Shown here: piece by piece, positions 19,340-48,760 of the stretch
Position numbering within the stretch: the stretch's first letter is position 1
Layout of the letters: each line of letters starts with the position of its first letter
Made by a program: the position numbers and the translations under genes
Assembly (NCBI GenBank): GCA_016934035.1
Contig: JAFGTP010000011.1
Coordinates: 60,486 to 124,485 of the forward strand
DNA length: 64,000 nucleotides
DNA from: Fidelibacterota bacterium
GTDB taxonomy: Bacteria; Fidelibacterota; UBA2242; JAFGTP01
Direction: 5' to 3'
The notes under the pieces: model-generated
Told to the model about the DNA's origin: nothing
Database searches by the model: none
What the model saw: the letters and a program-made list of their open reading frames with translations, nothing else

Positions 19340-22300
19340 TTGAAGTGGTACGTTATGAAAAAGTGGGGAAATTTAATTTTTATTGGTGTTGCTATTCTGA
19401 ATTTCGCTTTCAGTAAAGAACAACCATTACATCTCATACCCCTGGATTTTAATCGGGCGATCCATTGTATTTATCAAGATTCAAACTATTATCTCTGGTT
19501 TGGTACAGATGATGGACTCTATCGGTATAACGGAAAAGATTATGTCGCCTACAAAATTGATCCTTATCAAAAGAATAGTATATCCGATGATAATATCACT
19601 GCCCTTTATGAAAATGGAAGTCGGGACCTGTTGATTGGGACAAAATTTGGCGGAATCAATAAATTTAATAGCAGTACGGAAAATTTTTTATCTTTTCAAA
19701 ATGACCTCATGTCCAGGGTTTCCATTCATGCAATATGTAATTTTCAGAATGAAATATTATTTGGGATTGATTCTGGATTATTCAGGCTGAAAAGTGAGAA
19801 TAGTGAATTGTCATACCAGGCTGTCCTTACCGGTTACACAATTACTGACATTTTATCTGTAGATGATCATTGTTTGATGGTTGCAACGGAAAATAACGGT
19901 TTTTTTCATTATGATAATTTTGAAAAGGAGGGTAGTGAAAAGGACCATTTTCTCAGTAATGTGGGAGTCAATTTTTTATTAAAGGTAAATAAAAATATTA
20001 TATTGATATCAACCAGGCAGGGGCTGTATTATTACAATTTGTCCGCAAAATCTCTTAAATCCATCGAGCACAAGGGAATAGTAAATTTATCCAGTGTTGA
20101 TAAAAATGCCATTACAATGGACCACCTCGGCAATATCTGGATAGGATTGGGGTATGAATTGCATCTGATTAGCACTTCTGACGACTTTAATTCCATTGAT
20201 ATTCAGTCCTTTGAACTGGATGTAGATAACCAGTTTTCAAAGGGAATTAATGCCTTGTATTTTGATCATAGCGGTGTCCTGTGGATCAACCTGAAAGGGA
20301 AAGGTTTATATAAATATTTCCCGTTACAAAAATTTTTGCATTTCAATATTGAAGAAGGATTGATGAGCAATATGATCTTTTCCGTCATTGAAAACAATTC
20401 CCATTCAATCCTGCTGGGCACCCATCATGGTTTATTTGTTTATGACCTGGAAGACCACCTTGTCGAAAGGATACCTGGAACGGAAGAACTGAATTTTCAG
20501 GTCATCACCGCTTTGTATAAAGATAGTTATCAAAACCTCTGGTGTGGCACGAATAATGGCCTCTACAAGTTTGGATCTTCCGGCGATCTTGTCCATTATA
20601 AACATTCCTCAAAGGAACTGAGCAGTATCAGTTCTGATTTTGTCTCCTCCATTGTTGGTGATCCGCTCAATGTTGGCGACCTTTGGATCGGTACTTCCGA
20701 CGGACTCAACCGCTATCGAAAAGAATATGACAATTTCATTCATTATTTTCATGACCAAAAGGATGAACATTCTATTGCCGGAAATAATATTTCCCATTTG
20801 TATTTTTCCCAAAAAAAGGACCTCTGGATCGGAACAGAGAATGAGGGACTGTCTAGATTAAATTGGGCAGAAATGAACAAATTTGACCCAAAATTTGTCA
20901 ATTATGGCGATGATATTACTCAAAAAGAAAGTATCAGCGATACCAAGATCACCTATATTTCCGAAAGCAATGACAGAATATGGATTGGAACTGAGAACGG
21001 CGGTTTGAATTCAATCGATACCCTAAACAACTTCAATCATTATCTTGAAACAAAGGGGCTTTTGGATAACCATATTTTGTCGATTTTATCCACTCAGGAT
21101 GATTTCCTCTGGATTGCAACACGGGACGGAATATCCAAATTCGATACTCGAAACCGTGTGTTTAAAAATTATTATTTCAAAGATGGTATAAAGAAGGGTG
21201 AATTTATTAATAAATCAGCCTGCATCACAAAAAATGGTAAAATTATTTTAGGTTCCAAAGCCGGCTTTACTTTTTTTCATCCGTCTCAGATTGTCAGCAA
21301 TATCAATCCGGCAGTTCCGCAGGTTGCCGGTGTTTATCTTTTTAACCAAAAAATAAAAAATGAAGATTTTAAAGGCCAGGGTGAAATTATCAAATTAAAA
21401 TATAACCAAAATGTTATCTCTTTTGAAATTTGTGCGCTTCACTATGTTTCTCCTCTTGAAAATATTATCGACTATTATCTCGAAGGTGTTGATGAGAGTT
21501 GGGGCAGATGTCGGAATTTTGAATACCTGACATATTCAAATTTAAAACCCGGTCAATATACTTTTCACATAAAAGTGGCTAATAATGACAATATCTGGAA
21601 TGAAAATGAAAAGAGCCTGAAAATTACGATAACTGCTCCGTTCTGGAGGACTTTTTGGTTTCAGTTTATTGTAATCTCTCTAATTGCAGGCCTGGCCTTT
21701 CTGTTCATCAAGCAACGTTTGAATGAGATTGAAAAGAAAAAATTTCATCTGGAAAAACAAATTGGGGATAAAATCAAAATCAATGAAGAACTTAATAAAG
21801 CCCTGGCAGAAGTAGAACAGTTGAAAATTAAACTTGAAAATGAAAACACTTATCTGAAAAAAGAAATTGAGGTCAGCGGCAATTCAAATTATAAAGAAAT
21901 CGTGACCAATAGTAAAAAGATGAATCATATTCTCGCCCAGGTGGATATCGCATCCGGTGCAGACCCGACTATTTTGATATTAGGCGAGTCAGGAACAGGA
22001 AAAGATCTCCTCGCTCATGCCATTCACAAAAGCAGTAATCGAAGCAAAGAGCCTTTTATCAAAGTTGATTGTGCCGCATTGCCCCCCAACCTTATTGAAT
22101 CAGAACTTTTCGGCCACGAAAAAGGTGCATTTACTTCAGCAAATATGCGTAAAATCGGGCGTTTTGAATTAGCCAACGGCGGGACAATTTTTCTGGATGA
22201 GATTGGAGAACTTCCGATCAAGGTGCAACAGAAATTATTGCGGGTCCTTCAAAGCGGAGAATTTGAACGACTCGGAAATTCTGTGACACTGAGAACCAAT

Positions 22301-22825
22301 ACACGCATCATTGCCGCAACAAACCGCAATCTTGAAGATGAAGTGAAAAAGGGACAATTTAGAGAGGACCTCTATTACAGGCTCAATGTCTTTCCGATCA
22401 ATATTCCGCCTTTGCGGGAAAGGATGGAAGATGTGCCCCTGCTCGTTCAGCATTTTATTGATAAATATGCTGGGAAATTCAATAAAACCATTACCAAAAT
22501 TCCGCAGAAAACCATCACTGCGCTGATGTCCTATTCCTGGCCCGGCAATATTCGTGAATTGGAAAATATCGTACAGCGGGCTATCATTATTAGCCGAGAC
22601 GACATACTGGAACTGGGTGATTGGTTTAAATCCAATCAACCCAATCGTGAAAACGATGATGAAAATATATTTATTTCTCTGGAAGAGATCCAAAAGCGCC
22701 ATATTGAAAGAATATTGGAATTTACCAATGGAAAAGTCAGCGGGGAAAACGGGGCTGCGGAAATTTTAAAAATTAACCCGAAAACTCTATTTAGCAGGAT
22801 GAAAAAATTAAATATAAATAACTAA
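19340..22825 (+). CDS. Membrane-anchored one-component sigma-54-dependent transcriptional activator with a periplasmic beta-propeller (two-component-regulator-propeller repeats)/Y_Y_Y sensor, then TM helix, coiled coil, AAA+ sigma-54 interaction domain and Fis-type HTH
   Basis: N-terminal signal/anchor. Repeated …LWFGTDDGL/…LLIGT/…IWIGT propeller repeats. Y_Y_Y-like segment (NLKPGQYTFHIKVANND). TM helix FWFQFIVISLIAGLAFLF. The AAA+ domain has Walker A ILILGESGTGKD, ELFGHEKGAFTSA (GAFTGA-type) and R-finger motifs. C-terminal HTH. No HisKA/HATPase or receiver segment is recognisable. Confidence 0.75.
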   Translation: MKWYVMKKWGNLIFIGVAILNFAFSKEQPLHLIPLDFNRAIHCIYQDSNYYLWFGTDDGLYRYNGKDYVAYKIDPYQKNSISDDNITALYENGSRDLLIGTKFGGINKFNSSTENFLSFQNDLMSRVSIHAICNFQNEILFGIDSGLFRLKSENSELSYQAVLTGYTITDILSVDDHCLMVATENNGFFHYDNFEKEGSEKDHFLSNVGVNFLLKVNKNIILISTRQGLYYYNLSAKSLKSIEHKGIVNLSSVDKNAITMDHLGNIWIGLGYELHLISTSDDFNSIDIQSFELDVDNQFSKGINALYFDHSGVLWINLKGKGLYKYFPLQKFLHFNIEEGLMSNMIFSVIENNSHSILLGTHHGLFVYDLEDHLVERIPGTEELNFQVITALYKDSYQNLWCGTNNGLYKFGSSGDLVHYKHSSKELSSISSDFVSSIVGDPLNVGDLWIGTSDGLNRYRKEYDNFIHYFHDQKDEHSIAGNNISHLYFSQKKDLWIGTENEGLSRLNWAEMNKFDPKFVNYGDDITQKESISDTKITYISESNDRIWIGTENGGLNSIDTLNNFNHYLETKGLLDNHILSILSTQDDFLWIATRDGISKFDTRNRVFKNYYFKDGIKKGEFINKSACITKNGKIILGSKAGFTFFHPSQIVSNINPAVPQVAGVYLFNQKIKNEDFKGQGEIIKLKYNQNVISFEICALHYVSPLENIIDYYLEGVDESWGRCRNFEYLTYSNLKPGQYTFHIKVANNDNIWNENEKSLKITITAPFWRTFWFQFIVISLIAGLAFLFIKQRLNEIEKKKFHLEKQIGDKIKINEELNKALAEVEQLKIKLENENTYLKKEIEVSGNSNYKEIVTNSKKMNHILAQVDIASGADPTILILGESGTGKDLLAHAIHKSSNRSKEPFIKVDCAALPPNLIESELFGHEKGAFTSANMRKIGRFELANGGTIFLDEIGELPIKVQQKLLRVLQSGEFERLGNSVTLRTNTRIIAATNRNLEDEVKKGQFREDLYYRLNVFPINIPPLRERMEDVPLLVQHFIDKYAGKFNKTITKIPQKTITALMSYSWPGNIRELENIVQRAIIISRDDILELGDWFKSNQPNRENDDENIFISLEEIQKRHIERILEFTNGKVSGENGAAEILKINPKTLFSRMKKLNINN

Positions 22826-27493: not shown

Positions 27494-28741
27494 ATGAAAA
27501 ATATTAAAATAATTTTATTGCCGGTTTTACTCTTCTCAATAGTCATGGTGTCCTGTGAAGATTGGGTCCAGGATTTACCTCCCCGCGAGGATATTATTGA
27601 AGATGATGTTCTGGTAGATGAAGCCGATATCGATTTACTGGTTCTGGGTATCAAGACCAATTTTTCTTCAACTATTGAGCGGTCCTCGCTCTATTCGGAA
27701 ATATTGGGAGATGCTGTAATTAATGGTCGCTATGTTTGTCAGGATGCCACTTATGATGTCTGGCGCGAACTTGAAGAAGGTGATATTCAATTAAACAATG
27801 CGGCGGTTGACGGGCTTTCCACAAATATTGGAGAAATGTGGCACTGTGCCACCAATCTCGTCGATCGTATCACCAATCGAATGGGAGAAATCAGTGAAGA
27901 AAAGAAAAATTATGGGCTTTTCAACGGCCATCTGTTTGAAGGCATTGCTTATGAGATTTATGCCAATTATTATGGTCTGAATGAAGAAGAAGGCGGTGGA
28001 TGTATCAACTCCGGGCCTTTTACCAATTCAGGGCAGCTCTTTGATATGGCCCTGAATAAATATGAAGAGGCCCTCAATTTTACCAGTGATCCCTGGGAAA
28101 TCCGGGTGGTGAATTCACTGATGGCCAGGTGTTATTTATATAAAGGTGATTATTCCGGTTCCAGGATATGTGGAGCACTGGGTTTGACAGAAGGTGACCA
28201 GCCCTTTGAGGCGCTTTATGTTCAGTCCTCGGATAATTATTGGTGGCAGCAAGCCAGCATTGGACTTCGTGTCCAGGTCATTGTGGATAACAGGTTTGCT
28301 CAGTATATCGATGAGGATCCCAACGAAGCCAACCGCATTCCGCTTTATGAATTGCCTGACGAATTAAATGTGTCAGAAGATACTGCGGCGGTTTATTGGA
28401 CCCAGGGTAAGTATATTGAGGCAGATGCGCCTATCGCTTTTATCACCTGGCAGGAGACCTATCTGATCCTGGCTGAACTGGCTGCAATAAGAGGACAATC
28501 GGGCAATGCCCTTGATGCTGTCAATGCAGTTCGTGGCAGTCATGGAATTGATCCGGTGTCCGAAGTCAATCGTGATTTGATCATCACAGAGCGGGATAAA
28601 GAATTATTTACCACAGGTGCAAGGCTGATCGATCAGCGTCGTTTTGATCTATGGCATTTGCCCTCCGGTACATGGAAGTATCTCCCAATCACGGAAAGTG
28701 AACGAAATGCCAATGATAATTTGCCCAATGTCGGTGAATAA
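27494..28741 (+). CDS. SusD/RagB-like lipoprotein
   Basis: Lipobox VMVSC. Sits immediately after the SusC-like gene. C-terminus …RRFDLWHLPSGTWKYLPITESERNANDNLPNVGE matches the SusD-family C-terminal LPIP-x-SE-x-NPNL-type tail. Confidence 0.7.
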   Translation: MKNIKIILLPVLLFSIVMVSCEDWVQDLPPREDIIEDDVLVDEADIDLLVLGIKTNFSSTIERSSLYSEILGDAVINGRYVCQDATYDVWRELEEGDIQLNNAAVDGLSTNIGEMWHCATNLVDRITNRMGEISEEKKNYGLFNGHLFEGIAYEIYANYYGLNEEEGGGCINSGPFTNSGQLFDMALNKYEEALNFTSDPWEIRVVNSLMARCYLYKGDYSGSRICGALGLTEGDQPFEALYVQSSDNYWWQQASIGLRVQVIVDNRFAQYIDEDPNEANRIPLYELPDELNVSEDTAAVYWTQGKYIEADAPIAFITWQETYLILAELAAIRGQSGNALDAVNAVRGSHGIDPVSEVNRDLIITERDKELFTTGARLIDQRRFDLWHLPSGTWKYLPITESERNANDNLPNVGE

Positions 28742-28844: not shown

Positions 28845-28932
28845 TTGGCATTCATATTGTTATGCTAAAAGATGTACCATACTAATCCTAGGAAAAGGAA
28901 AGTCTCTCTCAAATAAACTTTCCTTTTTCTTT
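28845..28932 (+). promoter_or_regulatory. Module B: second copy of the sigma-54-like element (TTGGCAT-N5-TTGTT), GTACCATACTAATCC box, and hairpin plus T-tract
   Basis: TTGGCAT lies at 28845-28851 and TTGTT at 28857-28861. The box is at 28874-28888. Hairpin AAAAGGAAAGT/ACTTTCCTTTT is followed by the same CTTTTTCTTTTT tail as module A. The stems differ by compensatory changes. Confidence 0.3.
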
Positions 28933-29145
28933 TTCCAGATAAAATTCCCGATATCAAATCAGTGCTATCCCCCGACAGAGTAAAAATGGCGACAGGAAAG
29001 GCTTTTTTTCAAACTGTTAAATCTGTCTTCAGAGTCTTATAAAAAAATGGTGTATGGAATGATGTTCGAATTTTTATTTAAAAATCTGATATTTACATTA
29101 ATTATTTAATGTATTTGTTGAATTTTTTTTAATAAAAATAGTTTA

Positions 29146-29299
29146 ATATCAGAAAAGTATGATTTAGTTGAGGGTTTGATCGGTTTTTTTGAAGTATTTA
29201 AGAAATTCTGAAAAAAAATTCGGAAATTTCGGAAATTTCGGAAAGTTCTGAAATATCCTATATTTAATCCTTTTTGCATTATTCTGAAATATCAGAAAA
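29146..29299. promoter_or_regulatory. Array of 9-bp TTC(T/G)GAAA(T/G) units: five direct repeats (29206-29254), an inverted repeat ATTCTGAAAT-ATCAGAAAA (29281-29299) and isolated half-sites (29146-29157). Candidate activator binding region
   Basis: Read directly: TTCTGAAAA, TTCGGAAAT x2, TTCGGAAAG, TTCTGAAAT, and a palindrome built from the same unit. It lies about 85 to 240 bp upstream of the proximal sigma-54-like element at 29382. Confidence 0.4.
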
Positions 29300-29381
29300 C
29301 TAATTTTTAACATAAGTATTATCAATATTTTATCCAAATAAATATCGGTGTGATTGAAAAAAAATAATTCAAAATGGGCTC

Positions 29382-29426
29382 TTGGTACATCTGTTGAGAA
29401 ATACCTATCAGGATTAGTGTAAGGGG
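29382..29426 (+). promoter_or_regulatory. Proximal promoter/leader of SusC-like gene B: TTGGTAC-N5-TTGAG followed by GGATTAGTGTAAGGGG box
   Basis: Same architecture as 24469-24523. RBS AAAAGGAGGAAAGT sits before the ATG at 29493. Confidence 0.3.
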
Positions 29427-29492: not shown

Positions 29493-32400
29493 ATGACAAG
29501 AAATGTCATTTTATGGTTATTGACCATCCTGTTACCATTTGTTCTATTCGCTGGAACAACTGGTAAAATTTCAGGAATAGTAACCGACAAGGAAACCGGT
29601 GAACCCTTACCCGGTGTTAATATAGTGGTTACCGGTGGCGGTCTGAATACCGGAGCGGCAACTAACATCACCGGTTATTATTCCATTATTAATGTTCCTG
29701 TAGGTGATTATGAAATGAAAGTATCCTACATGGGAAAAAAGACCATTGTAATTAAAAACCTACATGTATCCCTGGATTTGACGACAGAAATCAATCTTGA
29801 GATGGAAAACAGTACATTGGATATGGAAGAAGTTCTGGTTACTGCCGAACGCAAAATTATCAGAAAAGATGAAACCAATACCAATGTTATCAAAACTGCT
29901 GAAGATATTGAAAATCTTCCCGTAAGAGGTATGCAGGAAATTGCAGCCGCCACAGCAGGTGTTGTGAAAACAGCGAATTCCAACAACATGAATGTTCGTG
30001 GCGGACGTGCAGCAGAAACTGCAGTGTATATAGACGGCGTACTGGTTAATGATCCCTATAACAGTGCCGTCAGACTGTATTTGCCAAACGAAGCAATTGA
30101 AGAAATGAGTGTCCAGACCGGTGGTTTCAATGCCGAATACGGTGATGCCATGTCGGGTATTGTTGCTTTGACCACCAATGTTGGGACAAAAGAATACAAG
30201 GCCTCTATATCTTTTGATACGGACCAGTTTCTGAGTGCTGAGGAAAAATTTCTGGGGACCTATTCCTATGGCCATAATGAGTATGTTGCCACCTTGAGTG
30301 GTCCTATTATTCCTGGAAAAAATCATACATTCTTTTTCAGTGGAACCCGTCAATACCAGGCTGACTGGACGCCTTCTTATGGCTGGTCAGAAAATCCCTA
30401 TCGTCTGGAGGAAATGGATTATCATCAGACTTTTATGTATGACAATGAATTTGACAGCATTCGTATTGCTTATAATGATGAAATGGAAAAAATGGATACA
30501 ACCCTGATAACCTATACCGAAAGAGATACACTTGATCTCGGTAACCATCAATACAAGTTTAATGCAAGAATACCTGGCAATTTCAACAGTGTCTGGTCAT
30601 GGAACGGAAAATTTAAATTACAATTGACCGAAGGGATTTCACTGAAAACCGGTTTTGCCAGAACTGACAGGGAATTTGCTGCAGATCCTTATTATGATGA
30701 TGCGATGCACCGGCAATATTTCTTCAATCAGGACCATGGTCCTGTTCAGTCCAATCAGACAACATCTCTCAATACCACGCTGACTCATACTGTTTCCAAT
30801 AATACTTTTTATGATTTAAGATTCAAATATTTTGATACAGAGCGGAAATGGTACGATAAGGAATTTGGTGATGATCTGGAAAAATATGGTAGTGTTGAAG
30901 ACCAGCCCTTTCCGGATCAAAATATATTCTACGTCGGTAGTGAAGAACTCCGGTCGCTTTATGAAGAGCGGTATGACCGTGGAACTTCAACATTTAAAGG
31001 TACTAGGTTCAACGGTTCTCTGGAACCGGACTTTTTTGCGCCCGGTGTTCCTTATGACGATTATTTTAAAAACAGAACAACCTATTGGGGAATCGATTTT
31101 GATCTGACCCACCAATTGGGAAAACATCATACCTTTAAAACCGGGTTTGAATATAAATATCACACCATGCGTGAATTTCGTATGGTAAGTCCCTACAATT
31201 ACGTCGGAGATTATGATACTGATATTGAAAGATATCAGGGTGCGGACCTGCGATTCTACGGTTATGATGTTGAGGGTAAAGAAGTGGATGACGGGCCAAA
31301 TTTTCTGGATGATGTCGAAAGAGATGAATCCGGACAGCCCACATCTGGTTATGACAAACAGGAACCCTATCATCCGATTATTATGAGTGGTTATTTGCAG
31401 GATAAAATAGAGTATGAAAATATTATCATCAATATGGGACTGAGATATGACCGGATTGATCCCAATGCCTGGATGTTCAAACAAATTGATAAACAGGTTG
31501 ATGCAGATGGCAATTACATCAATGGCACCGGTATGTTTGGTGGCAATGAACAATTTGATGCTGTAGATACAAAACCCTCAGAAGTATATGACTATCTCAG
31601 TCCTCGTCTGGGCGTGTCTTTTCCGATTACCGAAAGTACTGTTTTCCATACACAATATGGTATTTTCTATCAGGCACCTCAGCTCATGGACCTTTATCTG
31701 AGTCCTTTTTATCTGGATACCTATGTATCAGGTGGTGGTTATTTTACTGTGATTGACAATCCAAATTTACGGCCACCCAAAACCACTTCCTATGAATTGG
31801 GTTTCAAACAAATGCTTGGCAATCGCGCTTCGCTGCAGCTGACGACCTTTTTCAAGGAAACTGAAGACCTGGTACTGATATTCCCACATTTGACCGATGC
31901 TACGGAAATCGCTTTTACCGATAATGGTGATTTTGGCACCATCAAAGGTTTTGATGTGATTTTTACTATGAGAAGATTCAATAATCTTTCACTGAATATG
32001 AATTATGAGTTCCAGGTAGCCAGAGGGACCGGATCCAGTACCAATTCCAATTTTGATATCGCCTGGCAGGATGGTTCCCGGGACGGAAACTTTCCAAAGT
32101 TTGCAATGCCCCTGGATTTTGAGCAGCGACATCGCGGCAGTATCATAATGGATTACCGATACGGGCAGGATGATGCACCAATCGGTTTTCTGAATAATGC
32201 CGGTATCAATATGATGTTTACTTTTAATTCAGGTAATCCCTATACTTTGGCGGTTGTTGCCAACACCAATCCTTTTGGCGGCCGGAATGACAATGATGGT
32301 ATTTCAGAAAAACCCTTTTCAGCAGTCGGTGCGGAGCGGACTCCCTGGATGTATCAGACAGACCTGAAAGTAGATAAAAGAATGACTTTCGGAAAAATAA

Positions 32401-32633
32401 AACTGACGGCCTACTGTACAATATTGAATGTTTTTAATAAAGAAAATGTTAAAAATGTTTACATCACCACTGGATCGCCCAATGATACGGGTTACCTGGG
32501 TACCAATCCCGGTAAAGTATACTGGAATAGTTTAACTGAAGATCAGCAAAAACAATTCAAGATGAGAGAATGGGATTATAGCCATTATGCAGCACCAAGA
32601 CAGATTCGTCTTGGATTGCGGCTGGAACTATAA
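29493..32633 (+). CDS. SusC-like TonB-dependent outer-membrane receptor (no SusD partner)
   Basis: Signal peptide. Carboxypeptidase-regulatory-like N-domain (ISGIVTDKETGEPLPGVNIVV…GYYSI). Plug and a long barrel. Start taken at the ATG at 29493, which has a strong RBS; the ORF-track start at 29427 lacks one. Confidence 0.85.
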   Translation: MTRNVILWLLTILLPFVLFAGTTGKISGIVTDKETGEPLPGVNIVVTGGGLNTGAATNITGYYSIINVPVGDYEMKVSYMGKKTIVIKNLHVSLDLTTEINLEMENSTLDMEEVLVTAERKIIRKDETNTNVIKTAEDIENLPVRGMQEIAAATAGVVKTANSNNMNVRGGRAAETAVYIDGVLVNDPYNSAVRLYLPNEAIEEMSVQTGGFNAEYGDAMSGIVALTTNVGTKEYKASISFDTDQFLSAEEKFLGTYSYGHNEYVATLSGPIIPGKNHTFFFSGTRQYQADWTPSYGWSENPYRLEEMDYHQTFMYDNEFDSIRIAYNDEMEKMDTTLITYTERDTLDLGNHQYKFNARIPGNFNSVWSWNGKFKLQLTEGISLKTGFARTDREFAADPYYDDAMHRQYFFNQDHGPVQSNQTTSLNTTLTHTVSNNTFYDLRFKYFDTERKWYDKEFGDDLEKYGSVEDQPFPDQNIFYVGSEELRSLYEERYDRGTSTFKGTRFNGSLEPDFFAPGVPYDDYFKNRTTYWGIDFDLTHQLGKHHTFKTGFEYKYHTMREFRMVSPYNYVGDYDTDIERYQGADLRFYGYDVEGKEVDDGPNFLDDVERDESGQPTSGYDKQEPYHPIIMSGYLQDKIEYENIIINMGLRYDRIDPNAWMFKQIDKQVDADGNYINGTGMFGGNEQFDAVDTKPSEVYDYLSPRLGVSFPITESTVFHTQYGIFYQAPQLMDLYLSPFYLDTYVSGGGYFTVIDNPNLRPPKTTSYELGFKQMLGNRASLQLTTFFKETEDLVLIFPHLTDATEIAFTDNGDFGTIKGFDVIFTMRRFNNLSLNMNYEFQVARGTGSSTNSNFDIAWQDGSRDGNFPKFAMPLDFEQRHRGSIIMDYRYGQDDAPIGFLNNAGINMMFTFNSGNPYTLAVVANTNPFGGRNDNDGISEKPFSAVGAERTPWMYQTDLKVDKRMTFGKIKLTAYCTILNVFNKENVKNVYITTGSPNDTGYLGTNPGKVYWNSLTEDQQKQFKMREWDYSHYAAPRQIRLGLRLEL

Positions 32634-32666
32634 ATTGATTTCAATTTTTGAATTGGAGGAAAATAT

Positions 32667-35600
32667 ATGAGAAAAATTATAATATATACCTTGACAATGG
32701 TTTTTCTTCTGTCTGCATTTTTGATGGCTGAAGAAAATCAAAAGAAAACCAATGGCCCACTGGCGAAAACCGCCATGACCAGTGATATTTGGATGGACGC
32801 CAACAGGTTAAATGGTTTTATGAGAAATAATGGAATCTGGTTTTATGATATTCCAGCTCATACCTGGGGCCTGGAATGGCCGAAAGGCTCGGGTCTGAGC
32901 CCTATGTATGCCTGCGGACACTGGCTGGCTGCCCGTGTTGACGGCGAGGTCCGGGTAGGAGGAATTGTCCATGATGCCACCGAATATCAGCCGGGTGAAA
33001 TTCTTTCCCCCGGAATTGCTGCAAATCCCAATGATCCTGCCTACAGGTGGTATGTTCTCAGGCCCTCAGGTGTGGGTGACTGGAACAGCTGGCCGGTAGA
33101 GCAGGGAGCGCCGGTTGATGCAGAAGGGAATCCGATGATGATCGGTGATTATTCCGCCTTTTGTGTCTGGAATGATCTTGCGCCTCATACCCGTTTTGGA
33201 ACTGGAAAATTGAATGCTCAAATCCAGCAATTTGTCTGGGCCTTTAACCGGGCTGATGCACTGGGAGACATGATGTTTTCTAAATGGACTATTGTCAATA
33301 AAAGTGGCACCGATTGGAAAGACACATATTTTACGATTTGGACTGATCCTGATGTTGGAAATGCCACCGATGATTTTGTTGGTTGCGATACGGTTCTGGG
33401 AATCGGTTATTGCTACAATGCGACCAATGATGACCAAAATTATGGTGCTGCACCACCAGCAGTGGGCATTGATTTTTTCCAGGGACCCATTATTGATGAA
33501 GAGGGATCCCAGGTTATTTTGACCGATGGAACAGTCCTTGAAAATAAGAAAAAACTGAAAATGACATCCTTTGTCTATTTCAATAACAATGATAACCCGC
33601 AAAACGGAACACCCAATACGGGCCAGGATGCCTACAATTACATGAGGGCCATCTGGAAAGACGGTACATCGGTAACCGAAGGTGGCGTCGGTACTAATGC
33701 CAATAATCCGCCAGCCTCCTTTATGTTCAGCGGTGATCCGGTGACTGGCACAGGCTGGAATGACTCCAATGAAGATGACAGACGTTTCATGATGACTACC
33801 GGTCCCTTTAACATGACCTATTGGGAAGCCAATAATCCAAACCGCGATTTGAATATGAATGGTATCGCTGATTTCGGTGAACCCGGAGTCCAGGCTATCG
33901 TTGCTGGTTTTATTGTTGCCCGAGGAACCGATAATCTCAATTCAGTCGCCAAATTGAAACAGGTCGATGCTCTGGCGCAGCTGGCCTATGATGTAGATTT
34001 CAAACTGGCCAAAAACCCGATGTCTCCTGAAGTTGAAATCAGTGAATTGTCCAATGAAATTCTTTTGAACTGGACTGGCAATTCAGAATTCAATGAAGAT
34101 GGAACATTGTATGAATCCGCTGATCCGATCGTAGCCAAAGCCTTTGGCGATACTGTAATTATGGATAATATGGAAAAAGTCATTGCTGATTCAACCTATA
34201 ATTTCCAGGGTTATTCAGTTTACCAGTACGCTGATGCCGGTGGTGCCTCTCCGGTTCTCATTGACCACTGGGAAGTCGAAGATGCTTCAGAAGCTGCTCC
34301 CTATACCGGACCTAGAATGATTCGCATTACTCAGAATTCTCACGGTCAGGTAGGAAATGTCGGCGATTTACTGATTAACGGTAAGCAATATTATTTTGGT
34401 GTCGTCGCTCAAGGTTATTGCGAATTTGGTGCACCCATGATATTGGAAAGTGCTCCAACGATTGTCTCCGTCATTCCCCAGCAAAGGCTTGGACAGAGGA
34501 CTTATTCTGTATTCGGTGATTCTATCACAGTGACCCATATGAGAATTGACACAACTCAACCAACCAGTCAGGGCAATGTTGCCGCTTTGGTTGTTGATCC
34601 GACCAAAGTGACCGGCCACGATTACAAAGTTGGTTTTTATAACGATTCACAAGATAATCCGGTCTGGTATTTATATGATGAAACTGTAGGTGATACCCTT
34701 TTGAACAAGCAGGAAAATCAGAGAAATGACGAAGCCTACAATGTCACTGATGGAATGGTTGTCAAAGTCTCCGGTGCAGCTCCCAGTATTATTAGCGTTT
34801 CTCAGGTAGACACGGACAATTGGGATGAAGTCATTGACGCAACCCTGATTGGCAGTCTCAATGCAAAAGCGGATTATTCCGTTGGAAAACCTGCTTTTCT
34901 GGTAGCTGCTGCAGGGGCAGACGAAGGGGATGACGCAACCCAATTTACACAATGGGACTGGAAAGGTAATACAACTCCCAATGATATCGTCATTGAATTT
35001 GTTGAACCTGAAGAAGGACAGCTTGTTCTCAATGGCTGGGCTGACGCTCCAAATTCTGCCGATGGCAACTGGTTTCTCAACGGATGGATTGAATCGGATA
35101 CGGTGGGTGGTGAACAGACCATCCATGATACCCATGGCAGATTGCCTTTTAGAGTATGGATGATTACACCCTCTGGTGAAAGGACCCAGATCATTGCAGC
35201 TGTGCTGGAAGATAATGATAATTGGTATTGGGATCAGCAGCAGCCTGGAATTTTTGTTGATGGCGCTCTCAGTGGATGGGAAAGATTGTATTTATTAAAT
35301 TATCCCTACAATGAAACGGAACTGACCAGTGACGGCGGTGATAATGTACTCAACAATTTATTCTGGGGATCGCTCTATCCTGCTGCCCACTCAATCGGCC
35401 GCTTAATTTTTTCCATGTACTATGATCTATGGTCACCGGGAACAGGCGGACTTTGGGGAAAACCACCGGCAGCCGGTACTGTTATTCGTTGGAATTCTGC
35501 AAAACCCAATAGTGAAAATGATTATTACACCTTTACAGCACCAAAGGCTGCAACAGATTCCACCAGTCATCAGAAAGATGATATAAAAAATATCCAAGTG

Positions 35601-35900
35601 GTTCCCAATCCATATTATGGTTATCATTCCGGTGAAATGAATATTTTCCAGCGATGGGTGCAATTTACCAATCTGCCCGAAGAATGCACTATCAGAATAT
35701 TCGATCTTGCCGGCAACCAGATCAAGAAAATTCAAAAGAATGATCCAGCAACAACATTAGCGCAATGGGACCTTAGCAATGAATACGGCCTTCCGGTCGC
35801 CAGCGGTATTTATGTCTACCATGTAGATATTCCGAAGGTTGGCGAAAAAGTCGGCAAACTTGCGATCTTTGCTCCTAATGAACGGATGGATACTTACTAA
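32667..35900 (+). CDS. Large secreted protein of unknown function with T9SS C-terminal sorting domain
   Basis: Signal peptide. About 1000 aa with no motif I can assign. The last about 90 aa (IQVVPNPYYG…CTIRIFDLAGNQIKKI…ASGIYVYHVDI…KLAIF) match the T9SS type-A CTD pattern. Confidence 0.55.
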   Translation: MRKIIIYTLTMVFLLSAFLMAEENQKKTNGPLAKTAMTSDIWMDANRLNGFMRNNGIWFYDIPAHTWGLEWPKGSGLSPMYACGHWLAARVDGEVRVGGIVHDATEYQPGEILSPGIAANPNDPAYRWYVLRPSGVGDWNSWPVEQGAPVDAEGNPMMIGDYSAFCVWNDLAPHTRFGTGKLNAQIQQFVWAFNRADALGDMMFSKWTIVNKSGTDWKDTYFTIWTDPDVGNATDDFVGCDTVLGIGYCYNATNDDQNYGAAPPAVGIDFFQGPIIDEEGSQVILTDGTVLENKKKLKMTSFVYFNNNDNPQNGTPNTGQDAYNYMRAIWKDGTSVTEGGVGTNANNPPASFMFSGDPVTGTGWNDSNEDDRRFMMTTGPFNMTYWEANNPNRDLNMNGIADFGEPGVQAIVAGFIVARGTDNLNSVAKLKQVDALAQLAYDVDFKLAKNPMSPEVEISELSNEILLNWTGNSEFNEDGTLYESADPIVAKAFGDTVIMDNMEKVIADSTYNFQGYSVYQYADAGGASPVLIDHWEVEDASEAAPYTGPRMIRITQNSHGQVGNVGDLLINGKQYYFGVVAQGYCEFGAPMILESAPTIVSVIPQQRLGQRTYSVFGDSITVTHMRIDTTQPTSQGNVAALVVDPTKVTGHDYKVGFYNDSQDNPVWYLYDETVGDTLLNKQENQRNDEAYNVTDGMVVKVSGAAPSIISVSQVDTDNWDEVIDATLIGSLNAKADYSVGKPAFLVAAAGADEGDDATQFTQWDWKGNTTPNDIVIEFVEPEEGQLVLNGWADAPNSADGNWFLNGWIESDTVGGEQTIHDTHGRLPFRVWMITPSGERTQIIAAVLEDNDNWYWDQQQPGIFVDGALSGWERLYLLNYPYNETELTSDGGDNVLNNLFWGSLYPAAHSIGRLIFSMYYDLWSPGTGGLWGKPPAAGTVIRWNSAKPNSENDYYTFTAPKAATDSTSHQKDDIKNIQVVPNPYYGYHSGEMNIFQRWVQFTNLPEECTIRIFDLAGNQIKKIQKNDPATTLAQWDLSNEYGLPVASGIYVYHVDIPKVGEKVGKLAIFAPNERMDTY

Positions 35901-35941
35901 CGGTCAGGTTATCTGATAACGTAATTATGGAGGAAAAAGTT

Positions 35942-36976
35942 ATGAATAAAAATATATTAAAAATCACAAGCCTATTAATTTTGATACTGTTCAGCCAGGT
36001 GGTTTTTGCCAGTGGAAGCCGTGTTGGTACTGCTGCAGCTCCGGAATTGTTGATTCCCATGGGAGCCCGAAATGTGTCCCTGGGCTGTTCGGATATTGCC
36101 AACGTTACCGGCACCGATGCCATTTACTGGAACCCGGCGGGACTCTCTTACATCAAACAGGCCGAAGCAACCTTCAGTTATTTGAAGTATTTTGCTGATA
36201 TGAATGTCGCTTACATTGCTACCGGAATCAAGATGGGACAATTGGGTGCTGTCGGTATCAGTATTCAGTCACTGAATATCGGAAAAATTAAAGTGACAAC
36301 CATTGAAGCGCCTGAAGGCACAGGACAGGAAATTACTCCTGACTACCTTACTGCCGGATTGACTTATTCCAAAAAATTGACCAATAAAGTCGCATTTGGA
36401 AGCAATGCTAAAATCATCAGTGAAAATATTGGAAATATGTCAGCCACAGCTTTTGCCATTGACCTGGGACTGCAATACCACACCGAATTTGGACTTGATT
36501 TCGGTATTACCATGAAAAATATCGGTACTGATATGAAATTTGACGGACCGGAAATTGAATTCAACTCTGATATTCCTTTTGCAAATCCCAATGCCACAAC
36601 CCGCAAAACCAAACTGGACATGGCCTCCAACGAATTGCCCACCAGCATGAATATGGGACTGGCTTATACCCGAAAATTCAGTGATGCTGTAGCGGCTTCC
36701 TGCTATGGTCAATACAGTAAAAATACACTGGACATGGACAGAATGAATTTGGGTGGTGAAGTCAATCTGAACAACCTGTTGTTCCTGAGAGCAGGCTATA
36801 TTTATAATATCTATCCTGAAGATTGGGAGTGGGACAAGGACGCCCAGTTCAATTTTAGTTACGGCCTCGGATTAAATTTGATGGTTTCCGGGACCAAAGT
36901 CTATTTTGATTATGCATTCAGACCGATGGAATTGTTTGATGCGAATCAATACTTCTCCATTAGCGTAGGTTTTTAA
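35942..36976 (+). CDS. PorV/PorQ-family outer-membrane beta-barrel protein (T9SS-associated)
   Basis: Signal peptide. N-terminal GSRVGTAAAPELLIPMGARNVSLGCSDIANVTGTDAIYWNPAGLS resembles the PorV-family signature (GT-AA-FL-IG-GARA-AMGGA…DASA-YWNPAGL). C-terminal aromatic. ATG at 35942 with RBS GGAGGA. Confidence 0.55.
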   Translation: MNKNILKITSLLILILFSQVVFASGSRVGTAAAPELLIPMGARNVSLGCSDIANVTGTDAIYWNPAGLSYIKQAEATFSYLKYFADMNVAYIATGIKMGQLGAVGISIQSLNIGKIKVTTIEAPEGTGQEITPDYLTAGLTYSKKLTNKVAFGSNAKIISENIGNMSATAFAIDLGLQYHTEFGLDFGITMKNIGTDMKFDGPEIEFNSDIPFANPNATTRKTKLDMASNELPTSMNMGLAYTRKFSDAVAASCYGQYSKNTLDMDRMNLGGEVNLNNLLFLRAGYIYNIYPEDWEWDKDAQFNFSYGLGLNLMVSGTKVYFDYAFRPMELFDANQYFSISVGF

Positions 36977-36999
36977 TGGAGCCCCTTACATGACCTGGG

Positions 37000-37032
37000 A
37001 AAGGCTGCCGCAAGGCAGCCTTTTTCTATTTT
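37000..37032. terminator. Bidirectional terminator between convergent genes
   Basis: AAAGGCTGCC-gcaa-GGCAGCCTTT followed by TTTCTATTTT. It overlaps the stop of the minus-strand gene at 37026. Confidence 0.55.
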
Positions 37033-38648
37033 ATATCCATTAATGGAATTTTTTCAAGGGCCCGGTTGACAATATCCTGGCTGACACTTTCCGGCCTGAT
37101 TTTATAAAGGTTTTTGCCGGTTTTTTTTAGTCCGAAGATTTTTCCTGATTGATTGAATAGTTGCAACAGCGCCAAACCTAACTGAAGCCGGATTTCATTG
37201 CCGCTTAGGCCTTCTTTCAGAACCAGGTCATGGTTGTTTATCTGAAATTTGGGATCTATTGCTTGGGACCTCAATTCTTTGATAAAGTTAATAATCCGGG
37301 TAATGCGGAAAAGTGTCATAAGGTCTTTGCGTTTGAAATTTTCAGTTTCATAGGGCATAAAGGATGAACGGTAGAGGCTGGTGTCTTTTGGAATAAGATT
37401 ATTCTTTTGCAATTGATTAAAAATCGGTGTATTGGGCACCAGATAGAAAAAGGACGGGCCTATCAGAACTGGCAACTCTGCCAGGAAAAGGATGGAATTT
37501 AGCATTTGGTTAATTGTATGTTCTGGCAAGCCCAATATGATGTATGCGGTGATGAAAAATCCATGTTTTTCAGCGAGATGGACAAGTTCTGTAAATTTAT
37601 GTGTGGAGAAGGGACGATGGAGATGGTTCTGTTCTTGTTCATTTTCACTCACCAGTGCCAGATTGAGAGATGAAAATCCGACTGACTTCATTTTGACCAG
37701 CAATTCTTCATTGAGGTTCGTTGCCGTAATGCCATTCATCGCCTGAAAGGAAAGGTCAAACTTTGAAAATTTGTCAATGATCTGATCCAGAAATTCATTG
37801 AGCCATTTTTTTTGTCCGCCAAAGTGGTCATCCTCAAAATCAAAAGAGCGAAAGCCCTGGTGGATTTTTTGTTCAATCTCAGCAATCACATTTGTCACAC
37901 TGCGGGTTCTGTATTGATAACCCATAACCTGGTGAATGGAACAGAAGGAACATTTATAGGGACAACCGCGGCTGATCATGAGCATGGCGTGTTTTTTTCT
38001 GCCTAATTGGTATGATGGTGTGCCGGGCAGGGAATAGTCGGCAAATTTCAGGGCATCCAAAGCTTTGATCATTTTTTGCGGATTGATGACCATCTCTTCG
38101 TCTTTTTTCCAGATCAGATTGGGAATAGAGGAAAAGTCTGTGAGAGAGGCAGAAATTGCTTCAATCAGTTTGGGAAAGGTCTCTTCTCCTTCGCCATAAA
38201 CTTCAAAGTCAGCCCCATTTTCCAGAAAATTTCCTGGCAAAGCAGCGCAGGCATGGCCGCCGATGACAATTTTACTATCTGGCCGGGAAATTTTTAGAAA
38301 TCGAAGGATTTCCAAAACATTGTCAGAGTACGTTGTAAAATTGGCTGAAATGCCAAATACTTCAATATGCTGTGGAATGACATTTTCGAATTCTTCCGGC
38401 CTGCAACCAAAGCGGTAAAAATTTTTATATAAACCCAAAGGTGAACGGTCATCCTGCCGGTAATATTGTTTGAGAACGGAAAAGGCTTCGGGATATTTGA
38501 TACCTCGGGATTTGCTGTATCTCATATCCAGAATTGATACTTCATGATCTTTGATTTGCGCGCCAATAGATAGAAGTCCCAGGGGAATATTGCGAATTTC
38601 GGTGGCATAGAAATCATCAATGGGTGGTTGGATCAGGCAAATTTTCAT
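37026..38648 (-). CDS. B12-binding-domain radical SAM protein
   Basis: N-terminal cobalamin-binding-like domain, CPYKCSFCS CX3CX2C motif and a radical SAM core. Confidence 0.7.
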   Translation of the reverse strand: MKICLIQPPIDDFYATEIRNIPLGLLSIGAQIKDHEVSILDMRYSKSRGIKYPEAFSVLKQYYRQDDRSPLGLYKNFYRFGCRPEEFENVIPQHIEVFGISANFTTYSDNVLEILRFLKISRPDSKIVIGGHACAALPGNFLENGADFEVYGEGEETFPKLIEAISASLTDFSSIPNLIWKKDEEMVINPQKMIKALDALKFADYSLPGTPSYQLGRKKHAMLMISRGCPYKCSFCSIHQVMGYQYRTRSVTNVIAEIEQKIHQGFRSFDFEDDHFGGQKKWLNEFLDQIIDKFSKFDLSFQAMNGITATNLNEELLVKMKSVGFSSLNLALVSENEQEQNHLHRPFSTHKFTELVHLAEKHGFFITAYIILGLPEHTINQMLNSILFLAELPVLIGPSFFYLVPNTPIFNQLQKNNLIPKDTSLYRSSFMPYETENFKRKDLMTLFRITRIINFIKELRSQAIDPKFQINNHDLVLKEGLSGNEIRLQLGLALLQLFNQSGKIFGLKKTGKNLYKIRPESVSQDIVNRALEKIPLMDIK

Positions 38649-41799: not shown

Positions 41800-43728
41800 T
41801 CATTGGGCAGGTACAAACCGGGCTGCAAAACCGCCCCCTGGCGCCAGATGGATTTTCAGCAAATCACCGGCAGTGACTTCCTTTTTGGTTTGTTTAAAAT
41901 CCTCAGCATTTTTATCCGCATTTATTCCATCCTGGTAAATGATTGCTTGATATTTACCTTTACCCAGAAAATCAAGTTTGATATCAAAATCCCGAGCGGT
42001 CCAGTCGGTCATTGAACCAAGATAAAACTCCCGGCCGCTTTGCCGGACTGTGACGATATAATCGCCGACTTTTGCCTGCAGTACTATGGTGTCATCCCAC
42101 ACAGTGGGAACAGCCGATAAGAATTCCATACATGCTGGCTCGGCGTAATAATGTGATGGATTGTCGGCCAGCATTTGCAGGGGACTTCCGTAGACAATAT
42201 ACATGGCCAGTTGTTGACAGCGGGTGCCCAGAGTCATTGGTTTGGACCAAGTGGGATGGAAATTGGATTTGATTGTGTTTCTCATACCACCGGGAGTGTA
42301 ATCCATCGGTCCTGCTACATTGCGGGTAAAGGGCAGAATTAGTGCCCATTCCGGATTGGCCCAGTCACTCCATTTTGCCTGTTCCAGTCCGCGGACACCT
42401 TCGCGGGTGATGACATTGGGATAGGTACGCCGTAAACCAGCCGGTTTGTAGGAACCATGAAAATCCACTAACATTTTTCGCCTGGCGGCTTCCCGGGCTA
42501 TTTTTTCATAATACTGGACCATCCATTGGTCATCCCGTTGCATAAAGTCCACTTTGATGCCTTTGATGCCCCATTTTTCGAACTGGTCCAGGGCTTCATC
42601 TAGCTTGTCATCCAGTGCCTTCCAGGTGGTCCACAGAATCAGGCCAACGCCGGTTTGCTTACTGTAGCGCGACAGTTCGTTCATATCTACATCTGGATTG
42701 ACTTTCATCAGGTCTTTCAGGTCATACCAGCCTTCATCGAGGATAATGTACTCAAGACCATAGGTTGAGGCAAAATCCATGTAGTATTTGTAAGTAGCGG
42801 TATTGACGCCTGATTCGAAATCCACTCCCCTGATATTGAGTGCATTCCACCAGTCCCATGCAACTTTTCCGGGCCGGATCCAGTCCGTGTCTTTTAACCG
42901 GCATTCCCCGGCAAGTTGGTAAACCAGTTGTGATTCTGCGATTTCTTTGTCTTCACCGATGATCATCAGGCGCCAGGGGAATTTTCTTGTGCCCTCGGTT
43001 TTCGCCAGGAAGTTTTCGGTTTCAGTGATGATTACATCGCGGTCGCTGGTTTGTCGGGTGGTTTTGGGATATTTGGGAAAGATGGCTTTCAATCCGTTTT
43101 CTTTTCCTGTCAGATAAAAACCCGGATAGTCGAATAAGGCCGATTCTGAAATAAATATTTTAATATTATTGGATCCATCTATCAAAGTCGGTATGGAACA
43201 GAACTTTTGACCAATTTCTTCCAAAGACAGGTATTTGTATTCTCGTTCCTGGTGACTGTACATGCTTTCTTCTTCCGGGAACCAGAGATTGTAATTTGCC
43301 GGGAAATTGTATTCGATGGTTTCATTGACAATGGTCTGCTCCTCTTTCTGCTCAGTGACAAACCTGTAGGCAAAACCATGATTGTAGGCCCTGAATATCA
43401 GATTGAATTCATTAAAAAAAAGTGTCAATTCCCGGTAATGGTCCCGTATCTCTTTACTTTTTTCCCGAACAACAGGACGGAGGGTCATATCAATTTCATG
43501 GTTTTGTACCCGGCTTACGGTTGCGCCGGGTCCCAGTTGCCGGCTTGCAGTTTGCAGGGCAATTTGTGAAGGGTTTAAAATTTTTTGCTGGTTGTATGTT
43601 AATTCATAGGTAATGATTTTGTCTACGTTTACAATTGCTTCCAAAAAATTGTTCGGCGATGAAATTTTGTAAGAATTTCCCCATAAAAAACAAACGGTTG
43701 AAAGGAATATTAAGATCGATTTTTTCAT
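41800..43728 (-). CDS. Glycoside hydrolase family 97-like (alpha-glucosidase/alpha-galactosidase type)
   Basis: Signal peptide MKKSILIFLSTVCFLW (start at 43728). The N-terminus resembles the SusB-type GH97 N-domain. Central (beta/alpha)8-like region with the KVDFMQRDDQ motif. Confidence 0.6.
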   Translation of the reverse strand: MKKSILIFLSTVCFLWGNSYKISSPNNFLEAIVNVDKIITYELTYNQQKILNPSQIALQTASRQLGPGATVSRVQNHEIDMTLRPVVREKSKEIRDHYRELTLFFNEFNLIFRAYNHGFAYRFVTEQKEEQTIVNETIEYNFPANYNLWFPEEESMYSHQEREYKYLSLEEIGQKFCSIPTLIDGSNNIKIFISESALFDYPGFYLTGKENGLKAIFPKYPKTTRQTSDRDVIITETENFLAKTEGTRKFPWRLMIIGEDKEIAESQLVYQLAGECRLKDTDWIRPGKVAWDWWNALNIRGVDFESGVNTATYKYYMDFASTYGLEYIILDEGWYDLKDLMKVNPDVDMNELSRYSKQTGVGLILWTTWKALDDKLDEALDQFEKWGIKGIKVDFMQRDDQWMVQYYEKIAREAARRKMLVDFHGSYKPAGLRRTYPNVITREGVRGLEQAKWSDWANPEWALILPFTRNVAGPMDYTPGGMRNTIKSNFHPTWSKPMTLGTRCQQLAMYIVYGSPLQMLADNPSHYYAEPACMEFLSAVPTVWDDTIVLQAKVGDYIVTVRQSGREFYLGSMTDWTARDFDIKLDFLGKGKYQAIIYQDGINADKNAEDFKQTKKEVTAGDLLKIHLAPGGGFAARFVPAQ

Positions 43729-47904: not shown

Positions 47905-47941
47905 TTGATATTATTTTGTACTTCCCTCCTTCCTTACTCAC

Positions 47942-48755: not shown

Positions 48756-48760
48756 AAATA

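Follow-up and report, generated by a model that had tools for sequence, protein, structure and literature searches.

A conserved three-gene outer-membrane module of a TonB-dependent transporter, a large secreted protein and a PorV-like barrel in a Fidelibacterota bacterium and its relatives

The stretch of DNA analysed here, called the window, comprises 64,000 nucleotides of a Fidelibacterota bacterium (GenBank assembly GCA_016934035.1, contig JAFGTP010000011.1, positions 60,486 to 124,485 of the forward strand). It carries three consecutive genes, referred to as the trio, which encode a TonB-dependent transporter, a large secreted protein of an uncharacterised family, named BIG, and an outer-membrane barrel of the PorV/PorQ family. 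The trio is an operon of its own, its gene order is widely conserved, and a 9-residue tail at the C-terminus of BIG family proteins occurs together with a PorV-like gene directly downstream. We put the chances at about even that the three genes encode one outer-membrane machine, in which BIG would be exported through a type IX secretion system (T9SS), tethered by its dedicated PorV-like barrel and put to the service of TonB-driven uptake. The features of the trio and its borders are as follows.

29493..32633, + strand: TonB-dependent transporter, 1046 aa
32667..35900, + strand: BIG, secreted protein of an uncharacterised family, 1077 aa
32772..34016, + strand: D1 domain of BIG, beta-rich, with conserved columns
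35595..35870, + strand: T9SS-type C-terminal beta-sandwich domain (CTD) of BIG, recognised with family profiles
35871..35897, + strand: 9-residue C-terminal tail APNERMDTY of BIG, after the last CTD strand, which co-occurs with the PorV-like gene
35942..36976, + strand: PorV/PorQ-family outer-membrane barrel, 344 aa
28759..28789, + strand: terminator closing the upstream SusC/SusD unit, 13-bp stem followed by a T-run
36997..37026, + strand: terminator closing the trio, GC-rich 13-bp stem followed by a T-run

The intergenic gaps within the trio are 33 nt (transporter and BIG) and 41 nt (BIG and PorV-like gene). Because strong terminators lie on both sides, the trio is a transcription unit of its own, separate from the adjoining SusC/SusD-like pair; a search for hairpins followed by T-runs revealed no terminator of similar strength between these two terminators, and the downstream neighbour (37026-38648) is convergent to the trio. 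All three open reading frames (ORFs) proposed in an earlier note on this DNA are present on the + strand, including the transporter start at ATG 29493, which is preceded by an AGGAGG ribosome-binding site; a longer ORF from GTG 29427 was rejected as the transporter start for that reason. The PorV-like product is identical to a 344-aa NCBI protein (P0121, annotated as 'PorV/PorQ family protein' of a Candidatus Marinimicrobia bacterium), which fixes the start at 35942. All three proteins have ordinary signal peptides without a lipobox cysteine. The earlier note had described the adjoining locus as a SusC/SusD pair. Its first gene (24584-27484) passes the SusC/RagA model TIGR04056 (385 bits, cutoff 368), matches TIGR04057 with 49 bits and matches PDB entries 8aa4, 5fq6, 6sli and 5t3r by sequence, and its second gene (27494-28741) is a weak SusD match.

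Gene order and the C-terminal tail of BIG

A locus scan with one genome per species returned at least 546 loci, and the best 80 were examined for gene order. These 80 loci come from Marinimicrobia, Calditrichia, KSB1, Zixibacteria, Eisenbacteria, Ignavibacteria/Melioribacter, Rhodothermales, Latescibacteria and unclassified Bacteroidota metagenome-assembled genomes (MAGs), and include the trio locus of a cultured Melioribacter (L061). Of these, 66 have the transporter, BIG and the PorV-like gene in this order on one strand; contig ends cut 12 of the remaining 14 loci, and two (L079 and L081) are real exceptions. Such a recurrence is far above chance, and it occurs among flanking genes that vary widely from locus to locus. 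Thus, the three-gene order that the earlier note had put forward for comparison among relatives is indeed conserved. The pairwise correlations between the similarity matrices of the three proteins are r = 0.82-0.89 over 57 loci, which fits proteins that evolve as a unit, with shared phylogeny also contributing to the correlation. Furthermore, some genomes contain several divergent trios, which lie on one contig (L039 and L060), in one MAG (L026 and L065) or in tandem (L046 and L090).

The ending of BIG is linked to the presence of the barrel gene. A tail of exactly 9 residues is present in 73 family members. It follows the last CTD strand (K-L-A-V-[IF]) and has the consensus x-[PE]-x-[EQ]-[RQ]-[LI]-[DN]-x-[YFLIW], so that the last residue is Y, F, L, I or W. 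When every family member in the fetched loci was scored, a PorV-like gene was found directly downstream of all 68 members with the 9-residue tail and of none of the 11 members with a shorter or canonical ending (Fisher p ~1e-13, uncorrected for shared ancestry). An upstream transporter accompanies 64 of 66 members with the tail, as against 2 of 16 without it. The earlier note had suggested that a locus-specific PorV homolog next to one cargo forms a cargo-specific surface-attachment module, and the perfect co-occurrence of the tail with the adjacent PorV-like gene is strong new support for a PorV paralog dedicated to its cargo.

Copies and variants of the module occur beside the trio. In the two tandem loci (8084-14451 in L046 and 4751-11386 in L090), the second module again has a transporter and a PorV-like barrel, and a 791-aa distant paralog of BIG takes the middle position. 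The 791-aa protein has only its CTD (36% identity) and a DxRF..TTGPF motif in common with BIG; because it shares so little with BIG, the module design is not confined to the BIG family itself. Downstream of the trio there is often a second BIG paralog of full length (L029 14806-18162, L033 14841-18173, L044 13431-16901 and L083 14737-18027), with neither the 9-residue tail nor a PorV-like gene of its own. Such a tail-less paralog may be a cleaved or released version alongside the tethered one. Another full-length homolog, ending in ...VFIPYLK, is an orphan between pfk and pta-ack.

Structure and family of the three proteins

BIG consists of a Sec signal peptide without a lipobox, domain D1 (residues ~36-450), beta-sandwich domains D2 and D3, a variable region (residues 716-960), the CTD and the tail. 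No Pfam family is found in BIG above threshold, and a profile of the BIG family has no matches among PDB sequences. The structure predictions suggested in the earlier note gave a confident model of BIG (AlphaFold, pLDDT 88.5), for which Foldseek finds no convincing match in the PDB. Only weak multi-beta-sandwich matches are obtained, such as dextran dextrinase (TM 0.18) and complement/alpha2-macroglobulin arrays, and no functional reading was drawn from them. The family is large: more than 722 close homologs exist, every one annotated as 'hypothetical', and an exhaustive profile search yields 4,495 cluster representatives (50% identity) at E<=1e-30.

D1 is marked by an invariant Asp-rich loop, W-x-DPD-[LV]-G-x-x-x-DD-x-VG-x-D, and by a DRRF...TGPF motif. 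In other proteins found with the D1 profile, the domain is joined to a canonical Por_Secre_tail CTD, a BNR propeller or a dockerin. The shorter proteins consist of D1 and a Por_Secre_tail CTD (ending in ...KLLHLK or ...KMLLLK) or of D1, a BNR propeller and a CTD. These shorter paralogs sit in T9SS-cargo gene arrays, where neither a transporter gene nor a PorV-like gene is present.

The CTD of BIG is modelled with high confidence as seven strands (residues 977-1067), with local Foldseek matches to FlgD Ig-like and DUF3244 sandwiches, and the tail has a pLDDT below 50 in the monomer model. All 22 family CTDs compared match the NCBIfam models of the PorZ C-terminus (best E 1e-9), the PorU C-terminus (4e-7) and Por_Secre_tail (TIGR04183, 6e-7). 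The type B CTD model TIGR04131 gives marginal matches in 2 of the 22, and some family members carry a CTD recognised by Pfam as PF18962. When a profile of the 22 CTDs was compared with PDB sequences at E<0.1, only PorU (6za2, E 0.004) and PorZ (5m11, E 0.026) were matched, a nearness that may partly reflect sampling, because few T9SS CTD sequences are in the PDB. The CTDs of PorU and PorZ are retained and bound to PorV and PorQ, and it has been proposed that cognate PorV-like barrels shield CTDs from cleavage (PMC10202324). If this retained-CTD model is right for BIG, the 9-residue tail would be a sequence rule that predicts barrel-tethered T9SS cargo.

Another protein encoded in the window (16467-19181) passes the T9SS type A CTD model TIGR04183 (41.3 bits, cutoff 23), which suggests that the organism uses T9SS cargo sorting. 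It is 904 aa long and contains a putative HExxH metalloprotease region (MXAN_6640 family, weak) in addition to the type A CTD.

The product of the third gene passes the PorV/PorQ family model NF033709 with 161.5 bits (cutoff 90; residues 35-349 against profile positions 1-326 of 326) and the Pfam model PorV PF19572 with 31.4 bits (cutoff 27). It stays below the equivalog cutoffs of PorV (NF033710, 69.9 of 250 bits), PorQ (NF033711, 93.4 of 220) and PorV2 (NF052325, 78.3 of 325), and by these scores it is assigned to a separate PorV/PorQ subfamily, neither PorV nor PorQ proper. Its AlphaFold model (pLDDT 85) has 14 strands and an N-terminal plug region. The best Foldseek matches are the Flavobacterium johnsoniae PorV chains 8gl6_F (E 6e-16, TM 0.71) and 6h3i_F (TM 0.68); FadL and TodX reach ~0.5, and BamG chains are also among the fold matches. 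With a profile of the barrel family, PorV is the sole match among PDB sequences. These results agree with the earlier note, which had placed the third gene in the PorV/PorQ family.

Among PorV-like barrels, conservation is higher in the putative extracellular loops L1, L2 and L4 (0.97, 0.77 and 0.73) than in the membrane strands (0.63), with the loop topology taken from the usual rule for outer-membrane proteins. Because conserved outer loops are unusual for an outer-membrane protein, this suggests a fixed partner outside the cell. The conserved loops, together with the co-occurrence of the tail and the barrel gene, point to a specific, conserved contact, in which the CTD and tail of BIG would meet the outside face or the lumen of their own barrel.

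The transporter consists of a signal peptide, a CarboxypepD_reg N-terminal extension (NTE), a plug and a barrel of the 22-strand type. Pfam matches are CarbopepD_reg_2, Plug (PF07715, 42.4 bits) and TonB_dep_Rec_b-barrel (PF00593, 65.5 bits). Among 30 orthologs, the extension is found in all (PF13715 and PF13620), the plug in 29 and the barrel in 26; PF25183 is matched in 12 and PF14905 in 8. A TonB-box-like motif, EEVLVTAER (residues 112-120), resembles the classical (D/E)TxxVTA box and is kept in orthologs as xVxVxAERP. By these domain matches, the protein is classed as a genuine TonB-dependent transporter, but it lies outside the SusC/RagA family. TIGR04056 and TIGR04057 give no match on it at E<=0.1, a phmmer search against PDB sequences matches the NTE domain only (6ytc), and the ortholog profile matches CirA, FepA and PhuR, whereas RagA is matched over the NTE and plug only (35 bits). 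Because SusC/RagA models and barrels give no match, the label 'SusC-like' used in the earlier note is true for the architecture only and was rejected in the family sense. The gene downstream of the transporter has no SusD_RagB match and no lipobox, and its predicted structure is all-beta.

Neighbouring genes and regulatory elements

Two candidate regulatory features lie upstream of the trio.

19340..22825, + strand: candidate regulator of 1161 aa, a sigma-54 activator whose Reg_prop/Y_Y_Y sensor region is periplasmic, from Pfam matches
29382..29399, + strand: candidate sigma-54-type promoter TTTGGTAC-N5-TTG, ~95 nt upstream of the transporter ATG

The activator matches Sigma54_activat, Reg_prop, Y_Y_Y and HTH_8 in Pfam. 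In a 77%-identical relative (L002/L003), the activator ortholog lies 1.4 kb upstream of the trio, and one small ORF on the opposite strand, with no SusC/D pair, lies between them. We infer that the activator regulates the trio. Reg_prop/Y_Y_Y sensors lie upstream of the trio in the window and in L002, L060, L084 and L085; as a general companion of the trio they were rejected, being found at a minority of loci and lineage-specific.

The promoter at 29382-29399 is a weak candidate, which deviates from the GC consensus at -12. A similar element lies upstream of the SusC gene (24468) and of the L002 transporter. A sigma-54 consensus scan of the window shows no enrichment (19 found against 28.7 expected); the candidates are judged by position and recurrence alone. 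A palindrome, TTCTGAAATATCAGAA, at 23626 and 29279 and a tandem repeat, TTCGGAAAT, in three copies at 29222-29250 (regions 23626-23641, 24326-24345 and 29205-29300) are found 100-180 nt upstream of the TGGTAC-N5-TTG sequences that are candidate promoters of the trio and of the SusC gene, and may be enhancer sites for the activator. Between the activator and the SusC gene lies a 259-aa ORF (22843-23622) with no Pfam or NCBIfam match.

A repeated small-RNA-like element occurs upstream of both transporter loci (window 23779-23870 and 28846-28935; L002 5516 and 6330-6420). It consists of a sigma-54-like TGGCAT-N5-TTGT box, an exact 15-mer, GTACCATACTAATCC, and a strong hairpin with a T-run. The 15-mer has two copies in the window against 0.06 expected. 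The stem sequence of the hairpin differs between copies, with fold z-scores of -2.3 to -6.8. The segment ACTAATCC of the 15-mer is complementary to GGATTAGT, which lies in the 5' leader of the trio's transporter gene (window ~29409, L002 ~6747), and the element may be a regulatory small RNA that pairs with transporter mRNA leaders. Rfam has no match in the intergenic regions, including this element.

Genes around the trio differ among its relatives. In one of them, an exbB-exbD-exbD-tonB cluster precedes the trio by ~4.4 kb, a distance that includes three unrelated genes, and in L084 a GH29 fucosidase and a GH1 enzyme flank the trio. At 23 loci, the trio has a companion gene for a protein of 600-800 aa with a canonical Por_Secre_tail/FlgD_ig CTD; it lies just behind the PorV-like gene in L001, L007, L029, L033, L045, L053 and L056 and ~0.9 kb before the transporter in Ignavibacteria, where a DUF4397 protein immediately precedes the transporter. 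Both proteins may be further members of the unit. A GWxTD protein (TIGR04514) is encoded in 20 loci (including L004, L010, L011 and L017), directly after the PorV-like gene in most and upstream of the trio in three. In the window, the GWxTD gene overlaps the end of the gene for a 548-aa protein with a weak PorZ beta-propeller match (57915-59561 and 59548-60813). A link of GWxTD proteins to T9SS or to attachment at the surface may exist; no literature on them was found.

Downstream of the trio, a GH97 glycosidase and a B12-binding radical SAM enzyme are encoded on the opposite strand (41800-43806 and 37026-38648, respectively), and no link of these genes to the trio is seen in relatives. In a separate transporter locus (43931-50155), the gene for a TonB-dependent receptor (43931-46729) is joined by genes for a phytase (46816-47904), for an esterase (47916-48755) and for an Exo_endo_phos phosphatase that carries a FlgD_ig-type CTD (48869-50155). 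Next come a histidine kinase of the Reg_prop/Y_Y_Y/GAF/PAS type and a sigma-54 response regulator (50200-55829), and from its gene content the whole region 43931-55829 looks like an organic-phosphorus acquisition unit.

Proposed mechanism, known systems and alternatives

In the proposed mechanism, BIG would be exported by Sec and then by the type IX secretion pathway via its C-terminal beta-sandwich domain. The CTD would be neither cut off nor replaced by a lipopolysaccharide (LPS) anchor but would stay attached, and the CTD and the family-specific tail would dock non-covalently in or on the 14-strand PorV/PorQ-like barrel encoded next to BIG, by analogy with PorU on PorV and PorZ on PorQ. The barrel would keep BIG on the cell surface beside the TonB-dependent transporter. 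There, BIG may capture, and perhaps process, an extracellular substrate, probably a polymer-derived nutrient, which the transporter would import with TonB energy. The BIG/PorV-like pair would functionally stand in place of the SusD-type surface lipoproteins of Bacteroidia. The SusD role put forward in the earlier note would make BIG a lid over the transporter that binds the substrate. Retention of the CTD, contact with the transporter, import over export and the substrate are deduced rather than observed. The direction of import is suggested by the plug, the TonB-box-like motif, the exbBD-tonB cluster near one trio, the sensors and the glycosidase neighbours; the sensor type and the glycosidase neighbours also hint at a glycan substrate in the Marinimicrobia lineage.

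The module shares features with several known systems. As in SusC/SusD and RagA/RagB, a ~1000-aa transporter with a CarboxypepD_reg extension is encoded directly upstream of a surface protein, sometimes with a Reg_prop/Y_Y_Y-type sensor regulator. However, the trio transporter is outside the SusC/RagA family, its partner, instead of a SusD-fold lipoprotein, is an all-beta protein of 1077 aa that has a T9SS-type CTD and a plain signal peptide, and an obligatory third gene encodes the PorV-like barrel. In many Bacteroidetes, porU and porV are adjacent in this order, and the PorV-like gene of the trio likewise directly follows its partner gene. In PorU-PorV and PorZ-PorQ, a T9SS protein with a retained CTD is held by a barrel of the PorV/PorQ family (PMC10202324), and the same would apply to BIG if its CTD is retained. 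BIG lacks the PorU peptidase and the PorZ fold outside the CTD, and the trio differs by a transporter in the unit, several paralogous units per genome and an extra 9-residue tail on the cargo; its barrel fails both the PorV and the PorQ equivalog models.

Type B CTD cargo with PorP/SprF-like barrels, such as SprB-SprF, provides another precedent for a cargo-specific, adjacent-encoded barrel that anchors an uncleaved CTD (PMC9143113), whereas the trio has a PorV/PorQ barrel, a type A-like CTD and a coupled transporter. BamG of the Bacteroidota BAM complex is also a 14-strand barrel of the FadL/PorV superfamily, which is packed onto a larger barrel and uses its extracellular loops to hold a surface protein (PMC12578637). 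Its partners are BamA and surface lipoproteins, whereas those of the trio barrel would be the transporter and T9SS cargo, and the loops of BamG are reported to be unconserved, whereas the putative loops of the trio barrel are its most conserved parts. Oar, which acts in PopC secretion in Myxococcus, shares with the trio transporter the arrangement of CarboxypepD_reg NTE, plug and barrel, and where Oar has a TonB box the trio transporter has a TonB-box-like motif, but the neighbour of the trio transporter has a T9SS-type signal, and BIG paralogs lack a transporter neighbour. The module would join two known principles, a transporter with a surface partner and a T9SS protein anchored to a barrel by its uncleaved CTD, and it stands a fair chance of representing a class of uptake machine that is distinct and widespread. 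No description of the three-gene module or of the tail rule was found in the literature.

Several observations weigh against a tethered uptake machine, apart from the kinship and sampling already given with the tail association and the PDB matches. A recognisable binding or catalytic fold is absent from BIG in the fold and sequence comparisons with the PDB. The window BIG is below the generic T9SS cutoffs, with 15.5 bits for the whole protein and 20.3 for the isolated CTD in TIGR04183 (cutoff 23) and 14.7 bits in PF18962 (cutoff 27), so that its CTD is recognised with family profiles only. Thus, the T9SS CTD that the earlier note assigned to this protein is supported by the matches of the family CTDs to PorU, PorZ and Por_Secre_tail but not by generic models on the window protein. 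The CTD is the most conserved part of BIG (0.76, compared with 0.69 in D1 and 0.34 in the variable region). As proof of retention this was downgraded and carries little weight, because ordinary T9SS cargo beside the trio shows a similar, weaker trend (CTD 0.38 against passenger 0.29; 0.53 against 0.43 in BIG). No sprA or porKLMN is found in the 64-kb window, the part of the genome covered. Contact among BIG, barrel and transporter is read from gene order only. Reg_prop/Y_Y_Y sensors are found at only 5 of ~88 distinct loci, plus the window. The Ignavibacteria neighbours (GWxTD, LpxL-like, GT9, ArnT-like and M23) suggest envelope biogenesis, not nutrition, and some genomic contexts with LPS-biosynthesis and envelope genes fit a non-nutritional role equally well.

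The last point leads to an alternative in which the trio is an envelope or surface-coat module. BIG and the PorV-like barrel would then be a structural or biogenesis component of the outer membrane, likened to the PorU-PorV/PorZ-PorQ attachment complex or to BamG-type scaffolds, and the transporter-like barrel would be a partner or anchor, not an importer. This would account for the wide distribution and conservation of the trio, for the restriction of PDB sequence matches of the CTD to PorZ and PorU, for the GWxTD gene next to the PorV-like gene in ~20 loci, for the location of L001 among secA, tig and clpP, and for the Ignavibacteria loci, where the PorV-like gene is followed by an LpxL-like acyltransferase, a GT9 heptosyltransferase, an ArnT-like/TPR protein and an M23 peptidase. 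BamG provides a precedent, being a FadL-like barrel that serves as a fixed structural component and binds both a second barrel and a surface protein (PMC12578637). However, the two or more divergent trios found in several genomes are a better fit to substrate-specific uptake than to one core machine, the plug and the TonB-box-like motif are retained in the transporter, sensor regulators and glycosidases occur at some loci, and the flanking genes are unconserved across phyla. An envelope module is therefore unlikely, though it deserves to be kept in mind.

It is improbable that the transporter secretes BIG in the manner of Oar and that the PorV-like barrel then anchors it without a classical T9SS. 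A TonB-dependent transporter is required for protein secretion elsewhere (PMC6434023), the trio transporter has the Oar-type architecture, and T9SS core genes are absent from the window, which is the part of the genome covered. However, the arrangement of NTE, plug and barrel is the commonest importer architecture in the superphylum, so that the CarboxypepD_reg extension is uninformative on function, and BIG carries a T9SS-type CTD. Furthermore, D1 paralogs with canonical CTDs and tail-less copies of BIG have no transporter gene nearby, and export of the family therefore needs no transporter. Still less credit is given to a third reading, in which the third gene would encode a channel of the FadL type for hydrophobic molecules and BIG would be a secreted enzyme unrelated to it, with all three genes in a common pathway but no complex formed by their products. 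PorV itself is a member of the FadL superfamily, the fold matches to FadL and TodX structures are significant, and weak Toluene_X and UPF0164 matches are found in the window protein and some orthologs. The label of a FadL transporter was nevertheless rejected, because the protein passes the PorV/PorQ model, fails Toluene_X (PF03349, 20.6 bits, cutoff 29.7) and has PorV as its best fold match and sole PDB sequence match. The barrel thus does not turn out to be the FadL-type protein unrelated to PorV that the earlier note had named as its counter-case, and the perfect link between the tail and the PorV-like gene argues for a relationship between proteins.

The trio is carried by Marinimicrobia, Ignavibacteria, Zixibacteria, Calditrichia, KSB1, Eisenbacteria, Latescibacteria and Rhodothermales, groups that abound in oceans, sediments and soils. 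Surface substrate capture is poorly known in these groups, where the SusD system of Bacteroidia is mostly absent and the trio is among the most conserved outer-membrane gene clusters. If the tethered uptake machine is true, it would be a third way to give TonB-dependent transporters surface partners, beside surface lipoproteins and LPS-linked cargo. It would also extend PorV/PorQ barrels from parts of a secretion machine to cargo-specific anchors, and the 9-residue tail would provide a simple rule for barrel-tethered T9SS cargo. BIG heads an unannotated family of ~4,500 cluster representatives. With a probability somewhat short of even, FCB bacteria outside Bacteroidia would possess an unrecognised class of TonB uptake machine, in which a T9SS partner, in place of a lipoprotein, is locked into a dedicated PorV-like barrel next to the transporter by its uncleaved CTD and a 9-residue 'key', and D1 would be a new fold for substrate capture or enzymatic activity, shared by thousands of proteins.

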